DNA from: an uncultured virus (IMG/VR IMGVR_UViG_3300031539_000003)
Lineage: Duplodnaviria > Heunggongvirae > Uroviricota > Caudoviricetes
Virus record (IMG/VR): IMGVR_UViG_3300031539_000003
Direction: 5' to 3' (one strand)
DNA length: 64,000 nt
Position 1 is the stretch's first letter. Every line of letters begins with the position of its first letter. The notes under the pieces are model-generated. The model was given only the letters and a program-made list of their open reading frames with translations. It did no database searches and was not told the DNA's origin. The position numbers were made by a program, and so were the translations under genes. Below are positions 10,075-61,864 of the stretch, one piece after another.

Positions 10075-10704
10075 TTATTTGGAATATTTTTTACACTTGT
10101 CAATGCAATCTATTATAGCATCCACAATACTTTGGGGTGTTCCTGTAGCATCAATTCTAATCCCATCGCAATCATTCTCATAATACTCATACACCCTTTT
10201 TCTGAATTCTAAATCTTTACTTTCAAAATTATCTCGTTCAGTCGTATTTTTCATCCTATCAAGAATAACACCCCAGGATACAGATAAAATAAAGTTTATA
10301 TCAGGTTTACAAACATTGCAAAAACCTAAATTCTTAGTAAATATTTTTTCAGCAATATACCTATCAAGAAGCTCCTTTTTAGTAGTACCAGATGAATATA
10401 TTTGATAAGCTGCAGTAGAATAATACCACCTATCACCTACAACCATCTTACCATCGGCAAGCGCAGGTATTATAACCTTATCGCAAGTTTCTGAGAACGA
10501 AGCAATAAATAACAATAATTGAGTCCGATTAGTAACAGGATCTTTAGCATGTAATAATATTTCCCTTATCTTCTCGCCAGATGCAGTTGTACCAGGTTCT
10601 CGAATATAAAGAGCATCAGGATACACTTTCCTTAACTCATTAATTACTGTTGTCTTACCAACGAAATCAGGGCCTTCAATAGTTATAAACATTCCACCCT
10701 TCAT
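10075..10704 (-). CDS. tmk: Thymidylate kinase
   Basis: FITIEGPDFVGKTT P-loop, REPG, DRWYYSTAAYQ, KPD, DNFE; 209 aa. Confidence 0.92.
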   Translation of the reverse strand: MKGGMFITIEGPDFVGKTTVINELRKVYPDALYIREPGTTASGEKIREILLHAKDPVTNRTQLLLFIASFSETCDKVIIPALADGKMVVGDRWYYSTAAYQIYSSGTTKKELLDRYIAEKIFTKNLGFCNVCKPDINFILSVSWGVILDRMKNTTERDNFESKDLEFRKRVYEYYENDCDGIRIDATGTPQSIVDAIIDCIDKCKKYSK

Positions 10705-11419
10705 AACTTCACCCCAACCACCTTAATGATCATACGACTTTTAAGTAATTCCTTTTTATTATAAATCAGATACAATAATTTTAATACATACTTCCCGGCC
10801 TTAGAGATATAATATTTATCACCATTATGGGCTAACAGCCCCTTTCTCTCTAATGATGCATATGTAGCACCAGAGAAATCTGGTGTTATAATCTCCCAAT
10901 TTTTATCATCTGCCAACTCATTCTCATGAGTCATCGCCAATAATTGCGCCTGCCTTTTAGATACTTGTAAACTAAAGGCAATATTAGTCGTTGAATCCCT
11001 AAAACACTTCTTCCAATGCTCTTCACTCATAATTAGTCCTTGTATTCATAGTATGTGCCATAATACAGTCAAGCATCCTGCCTTTATCTGAATCTGTAAC
11101 TACCGGTTTACCCCAAAACTCCTTAACTGCCCTATGCCATATATCTTCATTACAATTCGCTTTAAGCCTATTTTTAAGGGTCTCTATCTCAGTAGCAAGT
11201 AGCAGAGCAGGACATGGGTTTATGCCCCTTAAATCGCACCCTACACACTTACAGCCCTTCATTGTCCTTTCTTTATCCTCATAAGCGTTCCACCGCTTTA
11301 CTATTTCTTCCCCTAACTGATCCGGAATCCCTGGGGCTATTCCTGCAACTCCAGTATCAGGATCGCTGGTAAATACCAACTCATTACCATTCCAAAACAT
11401 TTCGCCTGTCCACTTTAAT

Positions 11420-11690
11420 TTAAAACCCATTAGTATCATCCCCCTGACGTCGTTCCCAATCTCCAATTCTTAATATTAACTCCTCATACTCACTTTCAGA
11501 CAATTGCCTAGTTTCAATCCACGCACCCGTGAAGGGTGCGACCTTTCCAACAAGGAGGATTATGATTACACCCACCAATCGTAAAAGCACCCTTCTCTAA
11601 ATTGCCTACAATATCCCTGCAAAGAGAGTTAAACGCTTTCTCATCTTCATATGCTCTTGCAAATCTACAGGCTGATACTGAAATAGTCAT
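11420..11690 (-). pseudogene. Small gene apparently interrupted by a CRISPR repeat
   Basis: ORF from ATG 11690 stops at the TGA inside the repeat (11514-11516); a second frame RQLSESEYEELILRIGDWERRQGDDTNGF* runs 11509-11420. Confidence 0.55.
11511..11542 (-). CRISPR. Solitary type I-C CRISPR direct repeat (no array, no cas genes in window)
   Basis: Minus strand GTCGCACCCTTCACGGGTGCGTGGATTGAAAC: 32 nt, CGCACCC/GGGTGCG stem, ATTGAAAC end; GC-rich in an AT-rich context. Confidence 0.9.
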
Positions 11691-13212
11691 TTATTATACA
11701 GCCTCTAATCTTTCTTTTATATTATTTTTCCCTGGCACACTCCTAATTTCTTTCACAGGAAATGCAGCATAAACGTGTATAACAGATGATTTCGACTCAA
11801 TGCCCATAACTTTCCATCCTTCATTTAAGATACGGCATAACCCTTTTTCAAATCCTCCACCTTCACTCTCCCATGTAAAAACTTCTACTTCTTCGTACAT
11901 TCTTCGATTATCCATATCCATTGTAAAAATAGGAGTACATCCTTCATAATTCTTTCTTGGGCATGGGTCACAATCTTGTTTATAATGAGGCCGCGCTCCA
12001 CCACAGGCATGATTATCCGAACAACTACGAAAATTTTTACAAATTACGTACATACTTCATCTTCTTCCACTTCAGGTTTTACAGGTTTAGCCGTAACTTC
12101 CATCAACCTTTCAGCAATAGCCCCAATTGCCAACTTTCTTGCCTTTCCATATCCTTCTGACACATGGCATAATACTAATGTATCTTTAGCATAACCGCTC
12201 CAGGGCAAATCAATCTTATAACAATCGCACTTTTCGTGCGAATAATAATCAATGTAAATCGGATTCTTTGACAATGCATGCCCCCTGTTCATTAATATCC
12301 TTTTTCAAAATAGCACAATGAATCTTAAAAAATCCCAAAGGAGACCACCTGTACAAAGGTTCTGCATTTTCACATCCAAAACATGCCTGTTTATCTTCTT
12401 CTTTTTGAGATTTCATACATCTTCCCCCATAAGCCATCTCTCTGTCAATTTTTCATCATAAACTATTCTATCATAAAAATCATCTCTTGCTTTTTCATAT
12501 GCTTTTTTACAAATATCATCACAAACAAAATCACCATCTGCACTCAAAAGAATACCACCATCTTTCATTTCTTTTTGACAATAAAAACACCTCATTAACA
12601 TCATTCTCCATTTTTTATCTTTTTAACACATAAATCTGAACATTCAGTACTTACTCTATAAGATTTAAATTTCAAAGCACACTTCTTACAAATACCGTAT
12701 TGCCCCCTATTAGTACTAATTACACTTACACGATCATCCGGAAACAAAACGTTACAATTCCAACACCTAACTTGTCCCTTCATAAATATGAACATTTGAG
12801 TTTCAAGAAAATCTATACCCAATGATTCCAGTTTATAATGCATATTTTTTATCTTCACTGGCATTCCATCTTCATCTTTAATCATATCAACACCACGGGT
12901 CTCTCTTATAGCATTAGGTAGATTAGACGAAAGGGGATTTTCTGCATGTCCTTCGAGTTCAAGGATTCTCTCACATTCCCTGACCACATCTTCCCACCAA
13001 TATGTCTCTTCTCTTCTTAATGGAAGTTGTATTTCCATTACCTCCATGCCTATAATACTATCAAAACGACCTCCACGCTCAATCTTCTGCCACCCATATT
13101 CATGCTCCATCCCTTCATTCTGAACTCGCCCACCAGGATCAGGAATATAGATTTCATCTCCTGCTCTTATTTTATCTTTTCTTACTTCGAGATACCTTAA
13201 CATCGTTCCTCC

Positions 13213-26559: not shown

Positions 26560-26584
26560 GTTTATAATTATTTACTTAATGTTC

Positions 26585-26604
26585 GATGAATATTATATTA
26601 TTAA
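26585..26604 (+). promoter_or_regulatory. Class-2 promoter-like motif
   Basis: GATGAATATTATATTATTAA upstream of RBS CAGGAG and ATG 26627. Confidence 0.5.
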
Positions 26605-26626
26605 TACTTTTTACAGGAGATATATT

Positions 26627-27532
26627 ATGCAAGAATCAGAAGTTATCATTATAAACGGGATCCCAGAGCAGATTTATAATAACATAGTAGACGAAGCATT
26701 TGCTTACGCAGTAAAATCAATAGCATTCACTTATAATAGGCTCAAGAGAGGACTTATAGAAAGAATAGAATACATCACAAGTGGCAAAATATCAGAAAGT
26801 ATAATATGCTTCTTCCTGCGAGAAAATGGAATTGTAATAGATACTGAATGTTGCAAAACACCATACGAAATACCAGATCGAAACGATTTCATGTACGATG
26901 GGGTAGAATACGATACGAAATGCTATAAATTAAAAAATCAATCATCGGATATCCTTAATGATAATTTATATACAAATCTTCCAGCAGCAATAATGCAGGG
27001 GCAATTCAAAAACATTACATATAATCGAAAAGCAACATCTGCAGCATTCATATTCATGTTCCATAGAAAAGAGTGGAAACCGGTATTTAATATAAATATA
27101 CCAAATGATGTTGCTTCCCAAATAGATTATCTCTACAAAAAATATTATAATAAAGGTATCCCGATAGAAACAAAAGATAGAATGCAAATAAACTCATTCC
27201 CTGGTCGTTGCCAGATCAAACAAAATTACTATTTCTATTACATTATTACTGCCTATGCAAATCTAGTATACGACGGTCAAAAATTTTCTCTCTATGATGC
27301 ATATAGAAAAGGGCGACTCAATTTCGGTAAACATTTCAGTATAATAAAAAACAACTTCATATGCCCACTCACTTACCTTGACTCTTTTGCAAGTCTTTTT
27401 CCACACCAGTTAATTAAAAGAGGAATGAAATACGGCGTATTTAAAACAAATGACTATTCATCGATACTACAACCACCAGTAATCACTGCAGATAGTACAC
27501 CAATAGAATCATCTTTATCAAAACAATTATAA
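26627..27532 (+). CDS. Putative PD-(D/E)xK nuclease (restriction-endonuclease-like)
   Basis: GKISE helix followed by PDRNDFMYDGVEYDTK; likely start 26627 given the RBS. Confidence 0.45.
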   Translation: MQESEVIIINGIPEQIYNNIVDEAFAYAVKSIAFTYNRLKRGLIERIEYITSGKISESIICFFLRENGIVIDTECCKTPYEIPDRNDFMYDGVEYDTKCYKLKNQSSDILNDNLYTNLPAAIMQGQFKNITYNRKATSAAFIFMFHRKEWKPVFNINIPNDVASQIDYLYKKYYNKGIPIETKDRMQINSFPGRCQIKQNYYFYYIITAYANLVYDGQKFSLYDAYRKGRLNFGKHFSIIKNNFICPLTYLDSFASLFPHQLIKRGMKYGVFKTNDYSSILQPPVITADSTPIESSLSKQL

Positions 27533-27710
27533 AAAACGTTGTACTACATTTCTCATTTTCTGAACATTTGTAGGACAACGTTTTACCCAACATCTTTCAC
27601 TTTCATTACCATCTGTTAGGTAACATTATTGCCTATCACCCTGCATTTTTTGCCCACCTGTTAGGCAACCTTTTCCCACCAGTATGTATGAAAAAATCAT
27701 ACTTACTGAC
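27533..27710. repeat. Three degenerate palindromic units at 45-bp period plus a fourth hairpin
   Basis: Right arms TGTAGGACAA/TGTTAGGTAA/TGTTAGGCAA at 27569/27614/27659, each with a complementary left arm; then CAGTATGTATG..CATACTTACTG. Confidence 0.7.
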
Positions 27711-27757
27711 TATTTTATACAACTTTTTAAGAAATTATCTACTTTTTGCACTTTTTC

Positions 27758-27786
27758 TTGAGTTTTCTTAAAAAATGTATTATATT
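27758..27786 (+). promoter_or_regulatory. Sigma70-type promoter (class 1 variant)
   Basis: TTGAGT-17-TATATT upstream of the gene at 27828. Confidence 0.6.
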
Positions 27787-28330
27787 AATAAATATAACAA
27801 TTAACTTTTTACCGAAAGGAGTACCGTTTGAAAGAGAAAAAAATAGAAACCATAACACTCGATAACGGAATAAGGGTAACACGAAAAGACAATAAACACT
27901 ACCTATCTTACGAATTTAACGATACCAGCGGCAAGTTCTTTACCATCAAAATAGGTAAATATGAAATCGGGACTGATTTCATAACACCAGAAATGAAACA
28001 AATGGGATTTAGAACCTGTACAGCAGAAGAAATCGAAAGACAACACAGGGGCAGTATCGTGCACCTTTTAAAAATACCCCAAGGCTCAAACCCCATTCCT
28101 GACGCTTTTATTAAGTATGAAGACCTCGTTATGACCTGTATTAGGTCTGCTGGTGCAACATCTTACACCTTTAAAGAAATAGCCTGTAAGACAATGGCTC
28201 ATGAATCTCACATTATTTCAAAAACAGACGACACAAGAATAATAGAAAGTTCCATTAAAATTATTGAAGAACAACTTATAGGGATAAAAGAAGGTTGGGA
28301 ACTAGCTGACAATATTATTTAACCTTTCAG

Positions 28331-28358
28331 TTGACTTTCTTCCCGTTTTTGTTATATT
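28331..28358 (+). promoter_or_regulatory. Sigma70-type promoter (class 1)
   Basis: TTGACT-16-TATATT with TTTGTTATATT. Confidence 0.75.
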
Positions 28359-28385
28359 AAGACATAAACAAAAACGGGATTTTTT

Positions 28386-28748
28386 ATGTCAAATACTCAA
28401 ATATGTGAACATTGTGAGGGCGGAGGTATCGCCCCTAACCCATTTGAATCAACTAATGACCCATGTTTACATTGTAATGGAACTGGGACTATTCCCCCAG
28501 CCTATATCGTTTCCCCTAATGAACAACAGATAGAAAAGCACCCATCAGCAACTATACATATTGAATGCCCACTCTGCAATACTCTCCACCCACATATACC
28601 TGATGCTATAGGAGAACAACATAAATGTGAACTTTCCAAAAAAGATTATTATATATCAGGTAAATTACCAAAAATTGTTACATTGGAAAAATCAGAAGGG
28701 GTTCATTCTAATAAAGAAATAGCAATAAAACGACTAGACCATATATAA
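28386..28748 (+). CDS. Zn-finger protein (CxxCxGxG x2 plus CPxC..H) ending in KRLDHI
   Basis: CEHCEGGG, CLHCNGTG, ECPLCNTLH. Confidence 0.6.
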   Translation: MSNTQICEHCEGGGIAPNPFESTNDPCLHCNGTGTIPPAYIVSPNEQQIEKHPSATIHIECPLCNTLHPHIPDAIGEQHKCELSKKDYYISGKLPKIVTLEKSEGVHSNKEIAIKRLDHI

Positions 28749-29185
28749 GGAGGCATTATGCCAACAATCACAGAAATATTTATCGCATGCATCAAATCTA
28801 TGTTATCAGAAGACGAATACCTAATTAAAGCTTTAATCACTCAAAAATCTATGGAGATTGAAGAAGAAGAACTCATCAATATGATGAATGAATTTAACAA
28901 ACTCATACAAAACGATGAACCAGAACATTTAAAAGAATCCATTAATAGGGATGACAACATCGGTTTATTGTCATTCTATTTCTTTTCTTATTTAGGCTAT
29001 AAGTGTGAACGAGAGCTTAATAAAATAAATATAAATAATAACGAAGTGTATAAGTGGACAGACTCATACAGACACCCAGAACCAAACGAAATAATAATAA
29101 AATTCTTTGAACAATTTTACCCAGAAAAAATTATAAACTCAAAAGCACTCTTAAAATTCATGGACAAAAAACCAAAAGAGAAGAA

Positions 29186-29722
29186 ATGAACGCAGATAAA
29201 GAACATCCACGCTTCGACCTTTGCTCTCATTGCGATGGAAAAGGGCATATAAAGCAGACTAAAGGTAAGAATAAAATCCGCTTCTTGTGCAATGGTTATG
29301 GTCGTATCTCACACGTATTTGCTAAAAGATGAAATCGTAAAGATACCGTTAAATGTCCATTTTGTGGTAATGAACATATGCACTCAACCGGACGAGGTGA
29401 GCGAAAAGCAGATTGCGGCAGGGGTAATTATAATATCGTAAAATACAAAGGAGATAACGAAGTAGATATTCAACACGAATGGATCGAAGGGAACATACCT
29501 AAATTACTAGCAGAACCAGTCGATATAAGACATATGCGAATTATATGTCCGACCTGTGATACAGTAAACATACATGCAAAAGATCTAGGCACATTCGATC
29601 TACACTGCGGTCACGGAAAATGCACAGTCATAGGATTTCAAGAAGCAACCGAAGAAGAAATTAAAAATAGATTTATATCCGTTGCTACCCGTGCAATGAA
29701 AAGACTGGACAACATACAATAA
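29186..29722 (+). pseudogene. Paralog of 28386-28748 with an in-frame TGA at 29330-29332
   Basis: ATG 29186 overlaps the previous stop and is in frame with the 29378 ORF: CSHCDGKG...RFLCNGYG...KR*NRKDTVKCPFCGNEHMH...KRLDNIQ. Confidence 0.65.
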
Positions 29723-45274: not shown

Positions 45275-46006
45275 TCAAGCTGCTTGTTCAGAACTCTTTT
45301 GACCTCTAATGGGAGGTATACCCATCTCATTTCTCAACCTGATAACATAAGGAGGTTTTACTTTCAACTTTTTTGCAATAGCTGGATCATTCAAACCATG
45401 ACTATTTAATTCCCTTATCTTACCCATCAATGATAAAACTTTTTCAGAGTGCCCCCTTGAAGAGCCATCTTGATGTGGAGTCAATTCTAATTTTTTTAGA
45501 TCTCTATTAACATGGGCAACATCACTCTTTATCTGTTTTGCTATGTCCTTGCTTGAAAAACCATCTTTATGAAGCCCACCGATAACAGATAATCTTTTAA
45601 CTATATTCCGTTTCTTAACACTTACCAATTTAACCTGTTTCCTCTGTTCGGCAATAAATTGACGAGTACAACCCAACTTATCAGCAATCTTTAAGTCATT
45701 CAATCCATCTGAGTTAAGAGACTCTATCACTCCTATTAAATCATGTCCGTTCTTTGCTCTATTAACAACGACATCAGAAATATTAAGTATTTCGGCAATA
45801 TCACTAATTTTAACTTTCTTTTTTATTAGTTTCTTAACCTGATATATCAGGATATAAGAAACTTTCTTTTTCTCATTCGGTGGCAATTTTGCAACATCAG
45901 TTCTCCATCGGCGAACTCTCGAAAATGGTACTTCCAATTCAGCAGCAATATCCTTATCAGAATATTTCTTGTGGTACAACCGTGACATTTTATTATCAAG
46001 TTTCAT
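45275..46006 (-). CDS. Multi-HTH repeat DNA-binding protein
   Basis: Five repeats of the [SN]D..IA..L type (SDKDIAAEL, ISDIAEIL, NDLKIADKL, SSKDIAKQI, NDPAIAKKL). Confidence 0.7.
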   Translation of the reverse strand: MKLDNKMSRLYHKKYSDKDIAAELEVPFSRVRRWRTDVAKLPPNEKKKVSYILIYQVKKLIKKKVKISDIAEILNISDVVVNRAKNGHDLIGVIESLNSDGLNDLKIADKLGCTRQFIAEQRKQVKLVSVKKRNIVKRLSVIGGLHKDGFSSKDIAKQIKSDVAHVNRDLKKLELTPHQDGSSRGHSEKVLSLMGKIRELNSHGLNDPAIAKKLKVKPPYVIRLRNEMGIPPIRGQKSSEQAA

Positions 46007-58926: not shown

Positions 58927-60783
58927 CTATGGTACATATATTTCAACATTTACATCTTCATCAAAACCAACATCGCCTCTACGTAATGTAAAAACATCAC
59001 CATTATGATCAGCTATAATTATCATTCTCTTTTCCCAAGTCCCTGTATTGGTATACTCATTAAGTGTAAATAATCCGCGCCATTGACCATTCCTATTTTT
59101 ATGACTTATCACCTTCTTTTGGCCACTGCTATGCTTATAAACAACAGCCATAGAATCCCATTTATCTTCACTATTAAAATTAGGATCAGCAACTATACTT
59201 GGTACCTGTAAAATTTCTGACGCAACAACTATTGATAATCTATCAATGCCATCATTCTCAAAAGTATCACCACCAACAATACCAGATAAACCAAGCACCT
59301 GAACATCAAACGATGAAGATGAATCTGAACTCTCTGACGAACCACTTGACAATGAAGATGATGATGAGTCACTGCTCAATGAATCTGAACTAGACGAATC
59401 ACTAGACAATGATGAATTACTTGAATCTGACGACCCAGAACTCTTCGATGATTCTGAACTTATTGAATCAGATGAAGATGATTCACTTGACCCAGAACTC
59501 TTCGATGATTCTGAACTTATTGAATCAGACGAAGATGATTCACTTGACCCTGAACTCTTCGATGACTCTGACGATATTGAGTCTGACGAAGATGATTCAC
59601 TTGATACAGAACTATTTGATGATTCACTTAAATCTGACGACCCTGAACTCTTCGATGACTCTGACGATATTGAGTCTGACGAAGATGATTCGGAAGATTC
59701 AGAACTGAAAGATGAAAAAGAACTATCGGAAGATTCAGATGATTTGCTCTCAGACGATGATTCACTTGATTCTGACGATATAGAACTGACAGATGATAAA
59801 GAGCTTTCTGACGATATTGAGTCTGATGATGACGATTCGGAAGATTTGCTCTCAGACGATGATTCACTTGACTCTGACGATATAGAACTGACAGATGATA
59901 AAGAGCTTTCTGACGATATTGAGTCTGATGAAGATGATTCACTTGATGCAGAACTAGTTGATGATTCACTTAAATCTGACGACCCTGAACTCTTCGATGA
60001 ATCAGACGATATTGAATCAGACGATGACGATTCGGAAGATTTGCTCTCAGACGATGATTCACTTGACTCTGACGATATAGAACTGACAGATGATAAAGAG
60101 CTTTCTGACGATATTGAGTCTGACGAAGATGATTCACTTGATGTAGAGCTATTCGACGATTCACTTAAATCTGACGACCCTGAACTCTTCGATGACTCTG
60201 ACGATATTGAATCTGACGAAGACGATTCCGAAGATTTACTCTCCGAAGATGATTCACTTGACTCTGACGATTCTGAACTTACAGATGATAAAGAGCTTTC
60301 TGACGATATTGAGTCTGACGAAGATGATTCACTTGATGTAGAGCTATTCGACGATTCACTTAAATCTGACGACCCTGAACTCTTCGATGACTCTGACGAT
60401 ATTGAATCTGACGAAGATGATTCGGAAGATTCAGAACTGAAAGATGAAAAAGAACTATCGGAAGATTCAGATGATTTACTTTCAGAAGATGATTCGCTTG
60501 ATCCTGACGATCCTGAACTTTTGGATGACTCAGACGATATCGAGTCAGATGATAACGATTCACTCGACCCTGACGACCCTGAACTTTTTGATGATTCAGA
60601 TGATTTGCTTTCCGAAGATGACTCACTAGATTCAGAGCTTATAGAAGAAAAAGAGCTTTCAGATGACACTGAATTAGAAGAAGATTCGCTCGACTCTGAA
60701 CTGATCGATGATAAAGAACTTAAAGATGACAGGGAGCTTTCGGACGATTCGGAACTTAATGAGCTTATTGAACTACTGGACAT
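58927..60783 (-). CDS. Serine-rich repeat protein with an approximately 125-aa C-terminal globular domain
   Basis: About 490 aa of SSES/SDSISSESSKSSGS repeats; RBS GAGGA; no signal peptide. Confidence 0.75.
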   Translation of the reverse strand: MSSSSISSLSSESSESSLSSLSSLSSISSESSESSSNSVSSESSFSSISSESSESSSESKSSESSKSSGSSGSSESLSSDSISSESSKSSGSSGSSESSSESKSSESSDSSFSSFSSESSESSSSDSISSESSKSSGSSDLSESSNSSTSSESSSSDSISSESSLSSVSSESSESSESSSESKSSESSSSDSISSESSKSSGSSDLSESSNSSTSSESSSSDSISSESSLSSVSSISSESSESSSESKSSESSSSDSISSDSSKSSGSSDLSESSTSSASSESSSSDSISSESSLSSVSSISSESSESSSESKSSESSSSDSISSESSLSSVSSISSESSESSSESKSSESSDSSFSSFSSESSESSSSDSISSESSKSSGSSDLSESSNSSVSSESSSSDSISSESSKSSGSSESSSSDSISSESSKSSGSSESSSSDSISSESSKSSGSSDSSNSSLSSDSSSSDSLSSDSSSSSLSSGSSESSDSSSSFDVQVLGLSGIVGGDTFENDGIDRLSIVVASEILQVPSIVADPNFNSEDKWDSMAVVYKHSSGQKKVISHKNRNGQWRGLFTLNEYTNTGTWEKRMIIIADHNGDVFTLRRGDVGFDEDVNVEIYVP

Positions 60784-60930: not shown

Positions 60931-61677
60931 TTACTTTTTATCACCCTTCGAGGGACTGAAAATACGGAATATTCCCATTATTAAGTCTAACACCACTCCA
61001 AACAACGAACCACCCTTTTTAGTAGATGACTCATCCTGAACTTTCTTATCATCTACAATAACATCTTTTACTTCCTTTAATGGTTCTTCTTTCGGCTCTT
61101 CTACTGGCGTTACTGTTAATTCGGGCGCGGTAATTATGGTTTTTTGAGGTTTTATCTTTTTATCTAATTCTTTCCAAACGGTATCAAGCCCATCATTCAT
61201 TAAAATTTTATAAAGATCATTAATTTTAAAGCCGTAATCATTTTGAAAATGTGGAAATTCTCTAAATGTTTCCCACCTTCCAGCCCACTGTAACCCACAA
61301 CTTTCACCTAATTCACCTAATTTCATCCAAGGTAACGGTTGCTTCCCAGGCTTCGTAGCATCGGCATCATCCCATGTCCACTGTATACCCTGCTTCTGAG
61401 GGTTACCATCAAAAACATAGTCAGAAGCTATCCCGTAGGCATGAAAAGACCTACCTGGTTTTGCCTTAGTAACTATTTTGCTACTATTAACAACTACCCA
61501 TACCCCATCTCTTTTTTCTCTCCCCTGACCATATAACTCTTCCTGTCTTTCAAAAGACCTATATGATTCAAAAAGATAAGCATGCAATTCACTTTCTTCT
61601 ATTTTCCTATTAAAATCCTGTATCTGTTCAGCAAATGGAGGATATAAAGATTCAATATCACTTACTCTCTTACCCAT
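60931..61677 (-). CDS. M15 family (L-Ala-D-Glu) peptidase, probable endolysin
   Basis: YRSFERQEELYGQGR, VTKAKPGRSFHAYGIASD (SxHxxGxAxD), WAGRW..FREFPHFQ; likely start 61677 with RBS GGAGG. Confidence 0.88.
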   Translation of the reverse strand: MGKRVSDIESLYPPFAEQIQDFNRKIEESELHAYLFESYRSFERQEELYGQGREKRDGVWVVVNSSKIVTKAKPGRSFHAYGIASDYVFDGNPQKQGIQWTWDDADATKPGKQPLPWMKLGELGESCGLQWAGRWETFREFPHFQNDYGFKINDLYKILMNDGLDTVWKELDKKIKPQKTIITAPELTVTPVEEPKEEPLKEVKDVIVDDKKVQDESSTKKGGSLFGVVLDLIMGIFRIFSPSKGDKK

Positions 61678-61864
61678 CAGTACTACCTCCCTTTTTTGAA
61701 TTATCTTCCCATTTTTTGCGAAAACTAGCACTACATTCCCAAATCCATTGGAAAATTGGATCATCACCCAATTCTCTACCTAACTTCTTTTCCATCTTTT
61801 CTTTAAATTTCAAAGCTTCTTTTCTCTGGGCTTCCATAAACCGTTTAAATTCAGCCTGATCCAT
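61670..61864 (-). CDS. Small helical protein, DUF4032-like
   Basis: AQRKEALKFK....KKLGRELG.....QWI....ASFRKKW pattern. Confidence 0.4.
   Translation of the reverse strand: MDQAEFKRFMEAQRKEALKFKEKMEKKLGRELGDDPIFQWIWECSASFRKKWEDNSKKGGSTDG

Follow-up and report, generated by a model that had tools for sequence, protein, structure and literature searches.

The subject of this analysis is a stretch of 64,000 nucleotides (nt) from the uncultured virus record IMGVR_UViG_3300031539_000003 (hereafter the window, always meaning the full stretch) and, within it, positions 11,420-11,690, where a single type I-C CRISPR repeat interrupts a small gene with conserved Cys and His residues. The reading that we favour, with a rough probability of 0.55, is that a 40-nt piece of a type I-C array was cleanly inserted into this gene and that its repeat has been kept as an RNA decoy, in the manner of the RNA anti-CRISPRs (Racr). 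The parts of this reading carry grades of their own: that the insertion struck a once continuous gene is very probably true, judging from the comparison of sequences, and a Racr-like decoy role, taking the insertion as given, is an analogy that we put forward tentatively, at a little under even odds. The surrounding genes all lie on the minus strand and are closely packed, and the features on which the argument turns are the following.

11551..11690, minus strand: 5' part of the interrupted gene, codons 1-47, the third base of codon 47 being 11550 or 11510.
11543..11550, minus strand: 8 nt, TTGGAAAG, apparently co-inserted with the repeat, between codon 47 and the repeat.
11511..11542, minus strand: solitary type I-C CRISPR repeat, GTCGC...GAAAC (32 nt), oriented like the neighbouring genes.
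11420..11510, minus strand: 3' part of the interrupted gene, 29 codons plus stop, now out of frame, corresponding to the C-terminal helix of the family.
11514..11690, minus strand: present open reading frame (ORF) of 58 amino acids (aa), with its ATG at 11690 and, as its stop, a TGA within the repeat.
11551..11553, minus strand: TTG, the 3 nt that would stand directly 5' of the downstream 34 nt if the gene were uninterrupted (the position resembling a protospacer-adjacent motif, PAM).
11023..11430, minus strand: next gene, 135 aa, with its ATG at 11430 and AGGGGG 9 nt upstream.
11694..12053, minus strand: upstream gene, 119 aa, separated by 3 nt from the start codon of the interrupted gene.

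The present ORF reads ...GGCNHNPPC up to Cys47 (11552-11550) and then WKGRTLHGCVD, these last 11 residues being encoded by the insert, while on the 3' side of the repeat the +1 frame translates as RQLSESEYEELILRIGDWERRQGDDTNGF followed by a stop (11509-11420), which overlaps the ATG of the next gene (11430) by 11 nt. An initial annotation of the region, made from the sequence alone, had placed the repeat correctly (its 32 nt at 11511-11542 can now be assigned to type I-C from arrays that lie beside cas genes) and had proposed that removal of the repeat plus the adjacent 8 nt yields one ORF of 76 aa. The sequence layout bears this out: with the 40-nt insert removed, 47 and 29 codons add up to 76, whereas taking out 32 nt, the repeat alone, fails to restore the frame. 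The placement of the insert is ambiguous by 1 nt, a T (11511-11550 or 11510-11549); no target bases have been lost, and there is no duplication beyond that 1 nt. It was also right to call the overlap with the next ATG typical of this genome, as at the 7 other gene junctions between 10075 and 13203 the genes either overlap, by up to 44 nt, or stand no more than 3 nt apart. Behind the present ORF there is a gap of 83 nt, unlike anything at those junctions, and this, together with the 11-nt overlap of the read-through frame, agrees with a gene that was once continuous.

The gene belongs to a rare family, with 15 homologues found. A word-based search with the 58-aa ORF gave no match other than itself, and a phmmer search of 1.84 billion representatives (E <= 1e-3) returned 19 proteins, namely the query, 13 small proteins and 5 long ones. 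The long matches (P0005, P0008, P0011, P0014 and P0019; 300-2,072 aa) were excluded from the family; each has 4-9 short matching stretches, and Pfam finds immunoglobulin-like, cadherin and DUF5907 repeats in them. All 13 small homologues align to query residues 1-47/49 only, and a profile search added 2 more members (P0027 and P0028), bringing the homologues to a length range of 48-124 aa, with most at 67-86. They are 35-50% identical. The first 47 codons in the window hold all 8 invariant residues of the family (M1, C8, A13, N30, C41, H43, P45 and C47), of which the four Cys and His residues suggest putative metal binding, and a profile of the 13 homologues, with the window protein left out, matches this first part with E 5.8e-21 over profile positions 1-48. 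Concerning the function of the family, there was no curated-level match in Pfam or PHROG, no fold match by Foldseek in PDB or BFVD, and none in the ESM Atlas.

What matters for the insertion is how the homologues behave at the junction. Fourteen of the 15 read through it; Cys47 is followed in them by [RPSLA]-x-[LIPMV]-[TSND]-E... and then by a helix (P0020, for example, has ...SPPC followed by RQLSDEEINSL...). No search query included the tail encoded past the repeat, which makes that tail an independent test. Aligned alone to the hidden Markov model (HMM) of the whole family, it falls at profile positions 48-65, directly after the first part, with 0.9 bits and E 54, which is below significance; the outcome that the initial annotation had named as fatal to its proposal, two halves matching separate proteins, is not what was found. 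A fixed-register matrix was also made from the 17 columns after Cys47 in 12 homologue tails, leaving out P0006 (which has no tail) and P0027 and P0028 (which were found later). On this matrix the window tail scores 9.59 bits, a value reached by 8 of 54,929 stop-free 17-residue windows in the six frames of the 64 kb (p ~1.5e-4), the leave-one-out scores of true members being -3.3 to 33. When the register is slid from -3 to +3, the score is +3.53 at 0, the sole positive value, and <= -4.4 at every other, which favours an insert of 40 nt over one of 34, 37, 43 or 46 nt. Together with the 14 homologues that cross the junction, this upholds the earlier claim that 40 nt entered a gene that had been continuous. 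In the AlphaFold model of P0020 (mean predicted local distance difference test, pLDDT, of 88), helix 52-71 is confidently modelled as part of the fold; the tail corresponds to this helix, so the insertion would remove a structural element.

Could the 58-aa ORF instead be a natural gene, with a downstream frame that resembles the family tail by chance? This would be in line with P0006, a protein of 48 aa that stops one residue past the junction, with the 0.9 bits of the tail on the HMM, and with the frequency of stop-free 29-codon windows in this DNA, which is 0.295. The record of P0006 on 3 contigs, of up to 21.5 kb, makes an artefact of contig ends improbable, and the protein is either a natural short form or a likewise disrupted copy. 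The other earlier condition for abandoning the insertion, that homologues should end near the junction, thus holds for P0006, but not for the 14 that read through. Besides these 14, a chance resemblance is opposed by the score of 9.59 bits at fixed register with p 1.5e-4 and its confinement to register 0, by the 83-nt gap, out of line with the neighbouring genes, and by the last 11 residues of the ORF, which are the repeat read in frame: the same ending, ...RTLHGCVD and stop, closes an unrelated ORF on the metagenome contig L125. We consider the absence of any insertion very improbable.

Formally, a whole repeat plus 7-8 nt would have been inserted bluntly at a single phosphodiester bond, the junction showing <=1 nt of homology. 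Staggered integration by Cas1-Cas2 would duplicate the target, and no target duplication is seen, which argues against it. Other explanations for the interrupted frame were set aside as well. Ribosomal bypass of the 40 nt is opposed by the lack of a stop right after the take-off codon and of a Cys codon at the landing site, and a +1 frameshift by the lack of a recognisable shift site and by a product that would carry 13 repeat-encoded residues. As for an intron or a known structured RNA, Rfam gave nothing at gathering level across the whole window. The likeness of the 8-nt prefix to TTG...GAAAG located 8-18 nt downstream (with 3 nt skipped) was judged to be chance.

The identity of the repeat is established by its occurrence elsewhere. 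The exact 32-mer forms regular arrays with a spacing of about 66 nt at 37 loci in reference genomes and at least 124 metagenome loci, and the window copy is identical to these array repeats at 32 of 32 positions. Two of these genomes, mutually unrelated, are L015 (Melioribacteraceae) and L020 (Ca. Coprousia); their arrays adjoin genes for Cas5c, Cas8c/Csd1, Cas7/Csd2, Cas4, Cas1c and Cas2, all above the curated cut-offs, so the same sequence is found in regular arrays beside type I-C cas genes. Cas genes and GTCGC-to-GAAAC repeats lie on one strand in L015; since the genes of the region and the repeat in the window are all on the minus strand, the window repeat is in sense orientation and would be transcribed in sense. 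Its hairpin is present in both the minimum free energy and the centroid fold, and Rfam gives a weak match to CRISPR-DR9 (17 bits, E 0.19). Arrays with the identical repeat occur in Verrucomicrobia, Melioribacteraceae, Megasphaera, Atopobiaceae and Gammaproteobacteria, and also in the archaeal Thermoplasmatota, Methanomassiliicoccaceae and Methanofollis (L002-L038). As it is common to such distant lineages, the repeat allows no host assignment for the phage.

The repeat is solitary, being a single copy in the 64 kb at <=3 mismatches (0 of 100 shuffles gave a match), and the best ungapped match to it within 300 nt on either side is 15 of 32 positions, the chance level. A viral mini-CRISPR array, which would have at least two repeats and a spacer, was discarded, there being no second repeat within those 300 nt. 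No Cas family was found among the 93 window ORFs of at least 100 aa (E 1e-6), so that the repeat sits on a mobile element without cas genes. PHROG hits were obtained for 10 of 47 ORFs, and the window has genes of phage type (endolysin, dTMP kinase and DNA methyltransferases); structural genes were not found in it, and the designation as a phage is based on the phage-type genes and on the 136-kb contig. In content the window resembles a large phage's accessory region. Six contigs, the longest of 136,346 nt, encode the identical 58-aa product. By sequence, by solitariness and by its setting on an element without cas genes, the window repeat counts as one of the solitary repeat units already known from viruses.

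The same 32-nt repeat also stands alone at L125:136-354 (minus strand), on a metagenome contig with a GC content of 0.41. There, an ORF of 71 aa enters the repeat in the same frame as in the window and has the ending already mentioned, and another frame is open for 44 codons past the repeat, as far as the end of the locus; from its sequence, this may be a second gene-splitting insertion.

Why would such a repeat be kept? Solitary repeat units carried by viruses act as RNA anti-CRISPRs (Camara-Wilpert et al. 2023, PMC10651486), and as described there RacrIC1, situated 11 nt after acrIC5, shares a bicistronic RNA with it and inhibits type I-C interference. The window repeat has in common with RacrIC1 that it is one host-type I-C repeat in sense orientation, with an intact hairpin, on a phage-like genome without cas genes, and that it comes a few bases past the coding sequence of a small ORF, with which it would be co-transcribed. 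Unlike RacrIC1 as it appears in that account, it lies inside a disrupted conserved gene whose state before the insertion can be read, has no predicted promoter of its own and has no known anti-CRISPR (acr) neighbour. In the reading that we favour, an array of the host or of another mobile element would have supplied one whole 32-nt repeat with 7-8 nt of non-repeat sequence on its 5' side, and this piece would have entered between codons 47 and 48 of the small Cys/His gene, shifting the frame, bringing in a stop 11 codons on and leaving the helix out of frame. The repeat would then be transcribed within the minus-strand operon, and the hairpin and handle of its RNA could be recognised by Cas5c and Cas7, tying up host Cas proteins as RacrIC1 does. 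A decoy of this kind is favoured by a repeat that is whole, in sense, in an operon, with its hairpin kept and with identity at 32 of 32 positions, and by the precedent of RacrIC1. A comparable layout is seen at L045:300-331 (minus strand), where a 104-aa ORF stops 13 nt ahead of a solitary copy of the same repeat, intergenic on an AT-rich contig (GC 0.36), and the next ATG follows 48 nt after that copy, everything on a single strand, which lends support to the decoy.

Several observations nonetheless weigh against the insertion or the decoy. Taken by itself, the tail falls short of significance on the HMM of the whole family, and its support comes from a fixed-register matrix with an arbitrary pseudocount and a six-frame null; the direction and the age of the event are read from the family comparison alone. 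P0006, which ends just after the junction, indicates that a short form of the protein can exist and that the truncated gene may still work. In PMC10651486, solitary repeat units are sought in intergenic positions with a promoter within 250 nt upstream, and this repeat overlaps the 3' end of the 58-aa ORF and has no dedicated promoter, the nearest minus-strand promoter-like site being a 9/12 match about 360 nt upstream (the region has 15 promoter-like sites versus 8.6 expected). No known acr gene lies nearby, the neighbours having no Pfam or PHROG match. Moreover, a neutral scar would look identical in sequence.

Granted the insertion, such a scar would be an array fragment that was taken up where a dispensable gene had broken and that drifted to fixation with no function. 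The interrupted gene is probably dispensable, given that its family is rare and of unassigned function; one member is naturally short, and neither a promoter nor a neighbouring acr gene singles out the repeat. Nevertheless, a random 40-nt fragment would rarely hold exactly one whole repeat in sense, the copy is still identical to array repeats at all 32 positions, and the same allele is present in soil and marine runs, so we regard a functionless scar as somewhat unlikely. A second possibility is that the flank of the repeat serves as a guide. The RNA cut by Cas5c would consist of the 3' handle of the repeat plus the next 34 nt of the gene, and would direct the host Cascade against uninterrupted relatives that co-infect the cell; the carrier would read as self, with the repeat filling the PAM position, and an attacked genome repaired from the carrier would copy the 40-nt insert. 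The sense orientation, the exact abutment of the repeat to the flank and the carrier's own flank, AAC, the end of the repeat, are all as expected, and TTG is proficient in interference in one type I-C system (bioRxiv 10.1101/137067). Against this, no second repeat supplies a 3' handle (a lone type I-F repeat gave a working CRISPR RNA only once a spacer and a second repeat had been added, according to PMC10651486), no uninterrupted, near-identical allele was seen in the contigs of 4 runs, the known homologues, at 35-50% identity, could not be targets, and the PAM triplet is weak evidence at a background of 12.4%. This guide function is therefore distinctly improbable. If true, it would make of the insert a protein-free cassette of one repeat that spreads like a homing element, and spacer-guided recombination could be the origin of its first copy. 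Virus-borne mini-CRISPR arrays (Medvedeva et al. 2019, PMC6858448, as described in PMC11656645) resemble the present case in that host-type repeats are carried by a virus without cas genes and might use host Cas proteins against related viruses; they differ from it, on that description, in having at least two repeats and an acquired spacer, whereas the window has one repeat whose "spacer" would be the flank of the gene itself.

Recombination with a host array, as proposed by the initial annotation, is the remaining alternative. A spacer of that array would match the 34 nt past the junction, homologous exchange would take place there, and an illegitimate join would fall 8 nt upstream of the repeat; the PAM would thereby be parted from its protospacer, letting the phage escape the spacer, and the 8 nt would be the end of the neighbouring spacer. 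Phage protospacers reportedly recombine with CRISPR spacers (Varble et al. 2019), in work that is reported to describe phage integration and transduction of CRISPR loci; homology between spacer and protospacer as a route of exchange is the core of this proposal too. That work is not known to include a 40-nt repeat patch in a phage gene, and no donor spacer has been found here. In favour of such an exchange, the repeat meets the phage sequence at its 3' end exactly as array repeats meet the PAM-proximal end of their spacers, its orientation is right, and the sample of run X1 is rich in arrays with this repeat or one very like it. Part of the proposal does not stand as it was worded: nothing was "replaced", the event being a pure insertion, with the TTG still present 40 nt away.

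The PAM-like junction, too, has so far lent the proposal no support. An uninterrupted junction would read TTG (11553-11551), and in the type I-C system of L. pneumophila TTG is one of 6 PAMs other than TTC with 95-99.5% interference (bioRxiv 10.1101/137067). It is not the usual PAM for acquisition: according to the same source, the spacers acquired by that system lie next to TTC in about 90% of cases and next to TTT in 2-4%, and TTC is given as the type I-C PAM in two further abstracts. Along the strand of the window that carries these genes, 2.5% of positions come directly after a TTG and 12.4% after any of these 7 PAMs, frequencies that leave the triplet compatible with recombination but of little weight, without favouring it.

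Nor has a donor been found. A first round with 735 unique spacers (from IMG/VR locus L001 and genome loci) gave no match to the window. The set was then that of the loci with the exact repeat among the matches listed, comprising 162 loci that yielded 3,503 instances of the repeat and 2,515 unique spacers, among which there was again no window match, the best being 17/17 nt and 20 nt at 95%, both elsewhere in the window. The 34 nt after the repeat, for which a host spacer had been predicted, match none of these 2,515 spacers nor any of about 2,600 unique flanks per side. Likewise, TTGGAAAG, taken earlier for a remnant of the neighbouring spacer, is the end of no spacer or leader among about 2,600 unique upstream flanks listed, the best being 7/8 (TTGAAAAG), and the best match to the 12 nt upstream among the flanks listed is 10/12, the chance level (null fraction 0.12). 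These negatives are weak, as they cover the matches listed only, from collections that lack the source samples, the metagenome collection having yielded neither the window phage nor its relative. Exchange with a host spacer would in addition have to hit the boundary of the protospacer exactly with its illegitimate left join for the target to show neither loss nor duplication, which it leaves unexplained, and a single point mutation in the PAM or the seed would give the same escape. For all this we find it doubtful, and we keep the decoy as the preferred reading.

The distribution of the allele bears on several of these alternatives. Six soil runs (X1-X6) contain all sampled words of the window and may be where it came from, and in an independent marine run, X7, a contig of 252 nt spans 11459-11710 with 1 difference and no gap, that is, with the interrupted allele. 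The uninterrupted allele that the initial annotation suggested looking for did not appear: no contig joint skips the 40 nt in the contigs of 4 runs (region 10700-12300; those of X8 and X9 lie off the junction), bearing in mind that contigs hide rare variants; neither it nor a related phage was found among GenBank phages, by DNA or by protein with P0002 and P0015; and no related locus was found in IMG/VR with both neighbouring genes, the family alignments or P0006, or in JGI metagenome contigs by a family-alignment search (in a collection from which the window itself is absent). The next gene (11023..11430) has relatives P0003, P0004 and P0024 at 74-75% identity, the last on a 110-kb contig, and these were not returned by the searches of IMG/VR or of the metagenome collection.

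In run X1, two phage contigs (of 10,482 and 20,475 nt) end and begin within the repeat at 11511-11540, overlapping by 30 nt, and the depth is 125.7 in the bin of the repeat versus about 14 beside it. This peak, together with the break of the phage contigs inside the repeat, indicates that arrays with the same or a similar repeat co-occur in the sample; a solitary repeat common to co-occurring arrays breaks the de Bruijn assembly of the phage.

Some other features of the window were recorded. At 45275-46006 (minus strand) is encoded a protein of 243 aa with multiple helix-turn-helix (HTH) motifs, which matches NF040595 (CRISPR DNA repeat-binding protein Cbp1) with 30 bits at a cut-off of 140, and also ParB-like and HTH PHROGs; its likeness to Cbp1 is probably HTH similarity only. 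An ORF of 618 aa at 58927-60783 (minus strand) has no family match and holds the same 11-mer at 59440, 59497, 59554, 59647, 59989, 60184 and 60379, thus having internal tandem repeats; it may encode a fibre-like protein, adjoining the endolysin at 60931-61767. The only block of plus-strand ORFs in the otherwise minus-strand window is at 26579-29722, with no family matches and a GC skew of -0.09 to -0.19 versus about -0.35 elsewhere.

The position of the repeat inside a gene has consequences for how such elements are found and for what can be learnt from them. SRUfinder, according to PMC10651486, works with the ORFs masked and regards a match inside a gene as a probable false positive, so that a case like the window repeat would be hidden by the called 58-aa ORF; searches for solitary repeats that mask ORFs can therefore miss real ones. 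And how do phages acquire lone repeats? A narrow search of the consulted passages of PMC10651486 and of the 2024 review PMC11656645 found nothing on this. Because the insertion lies in a conserved gene, its exact borders and the sequence before and after the event can be read, and what they delimit, one whole repeat plus 7-8 nt, in sense, with no loss or duplication of the target, constrains the mechanism by which phages acquire such repeats.

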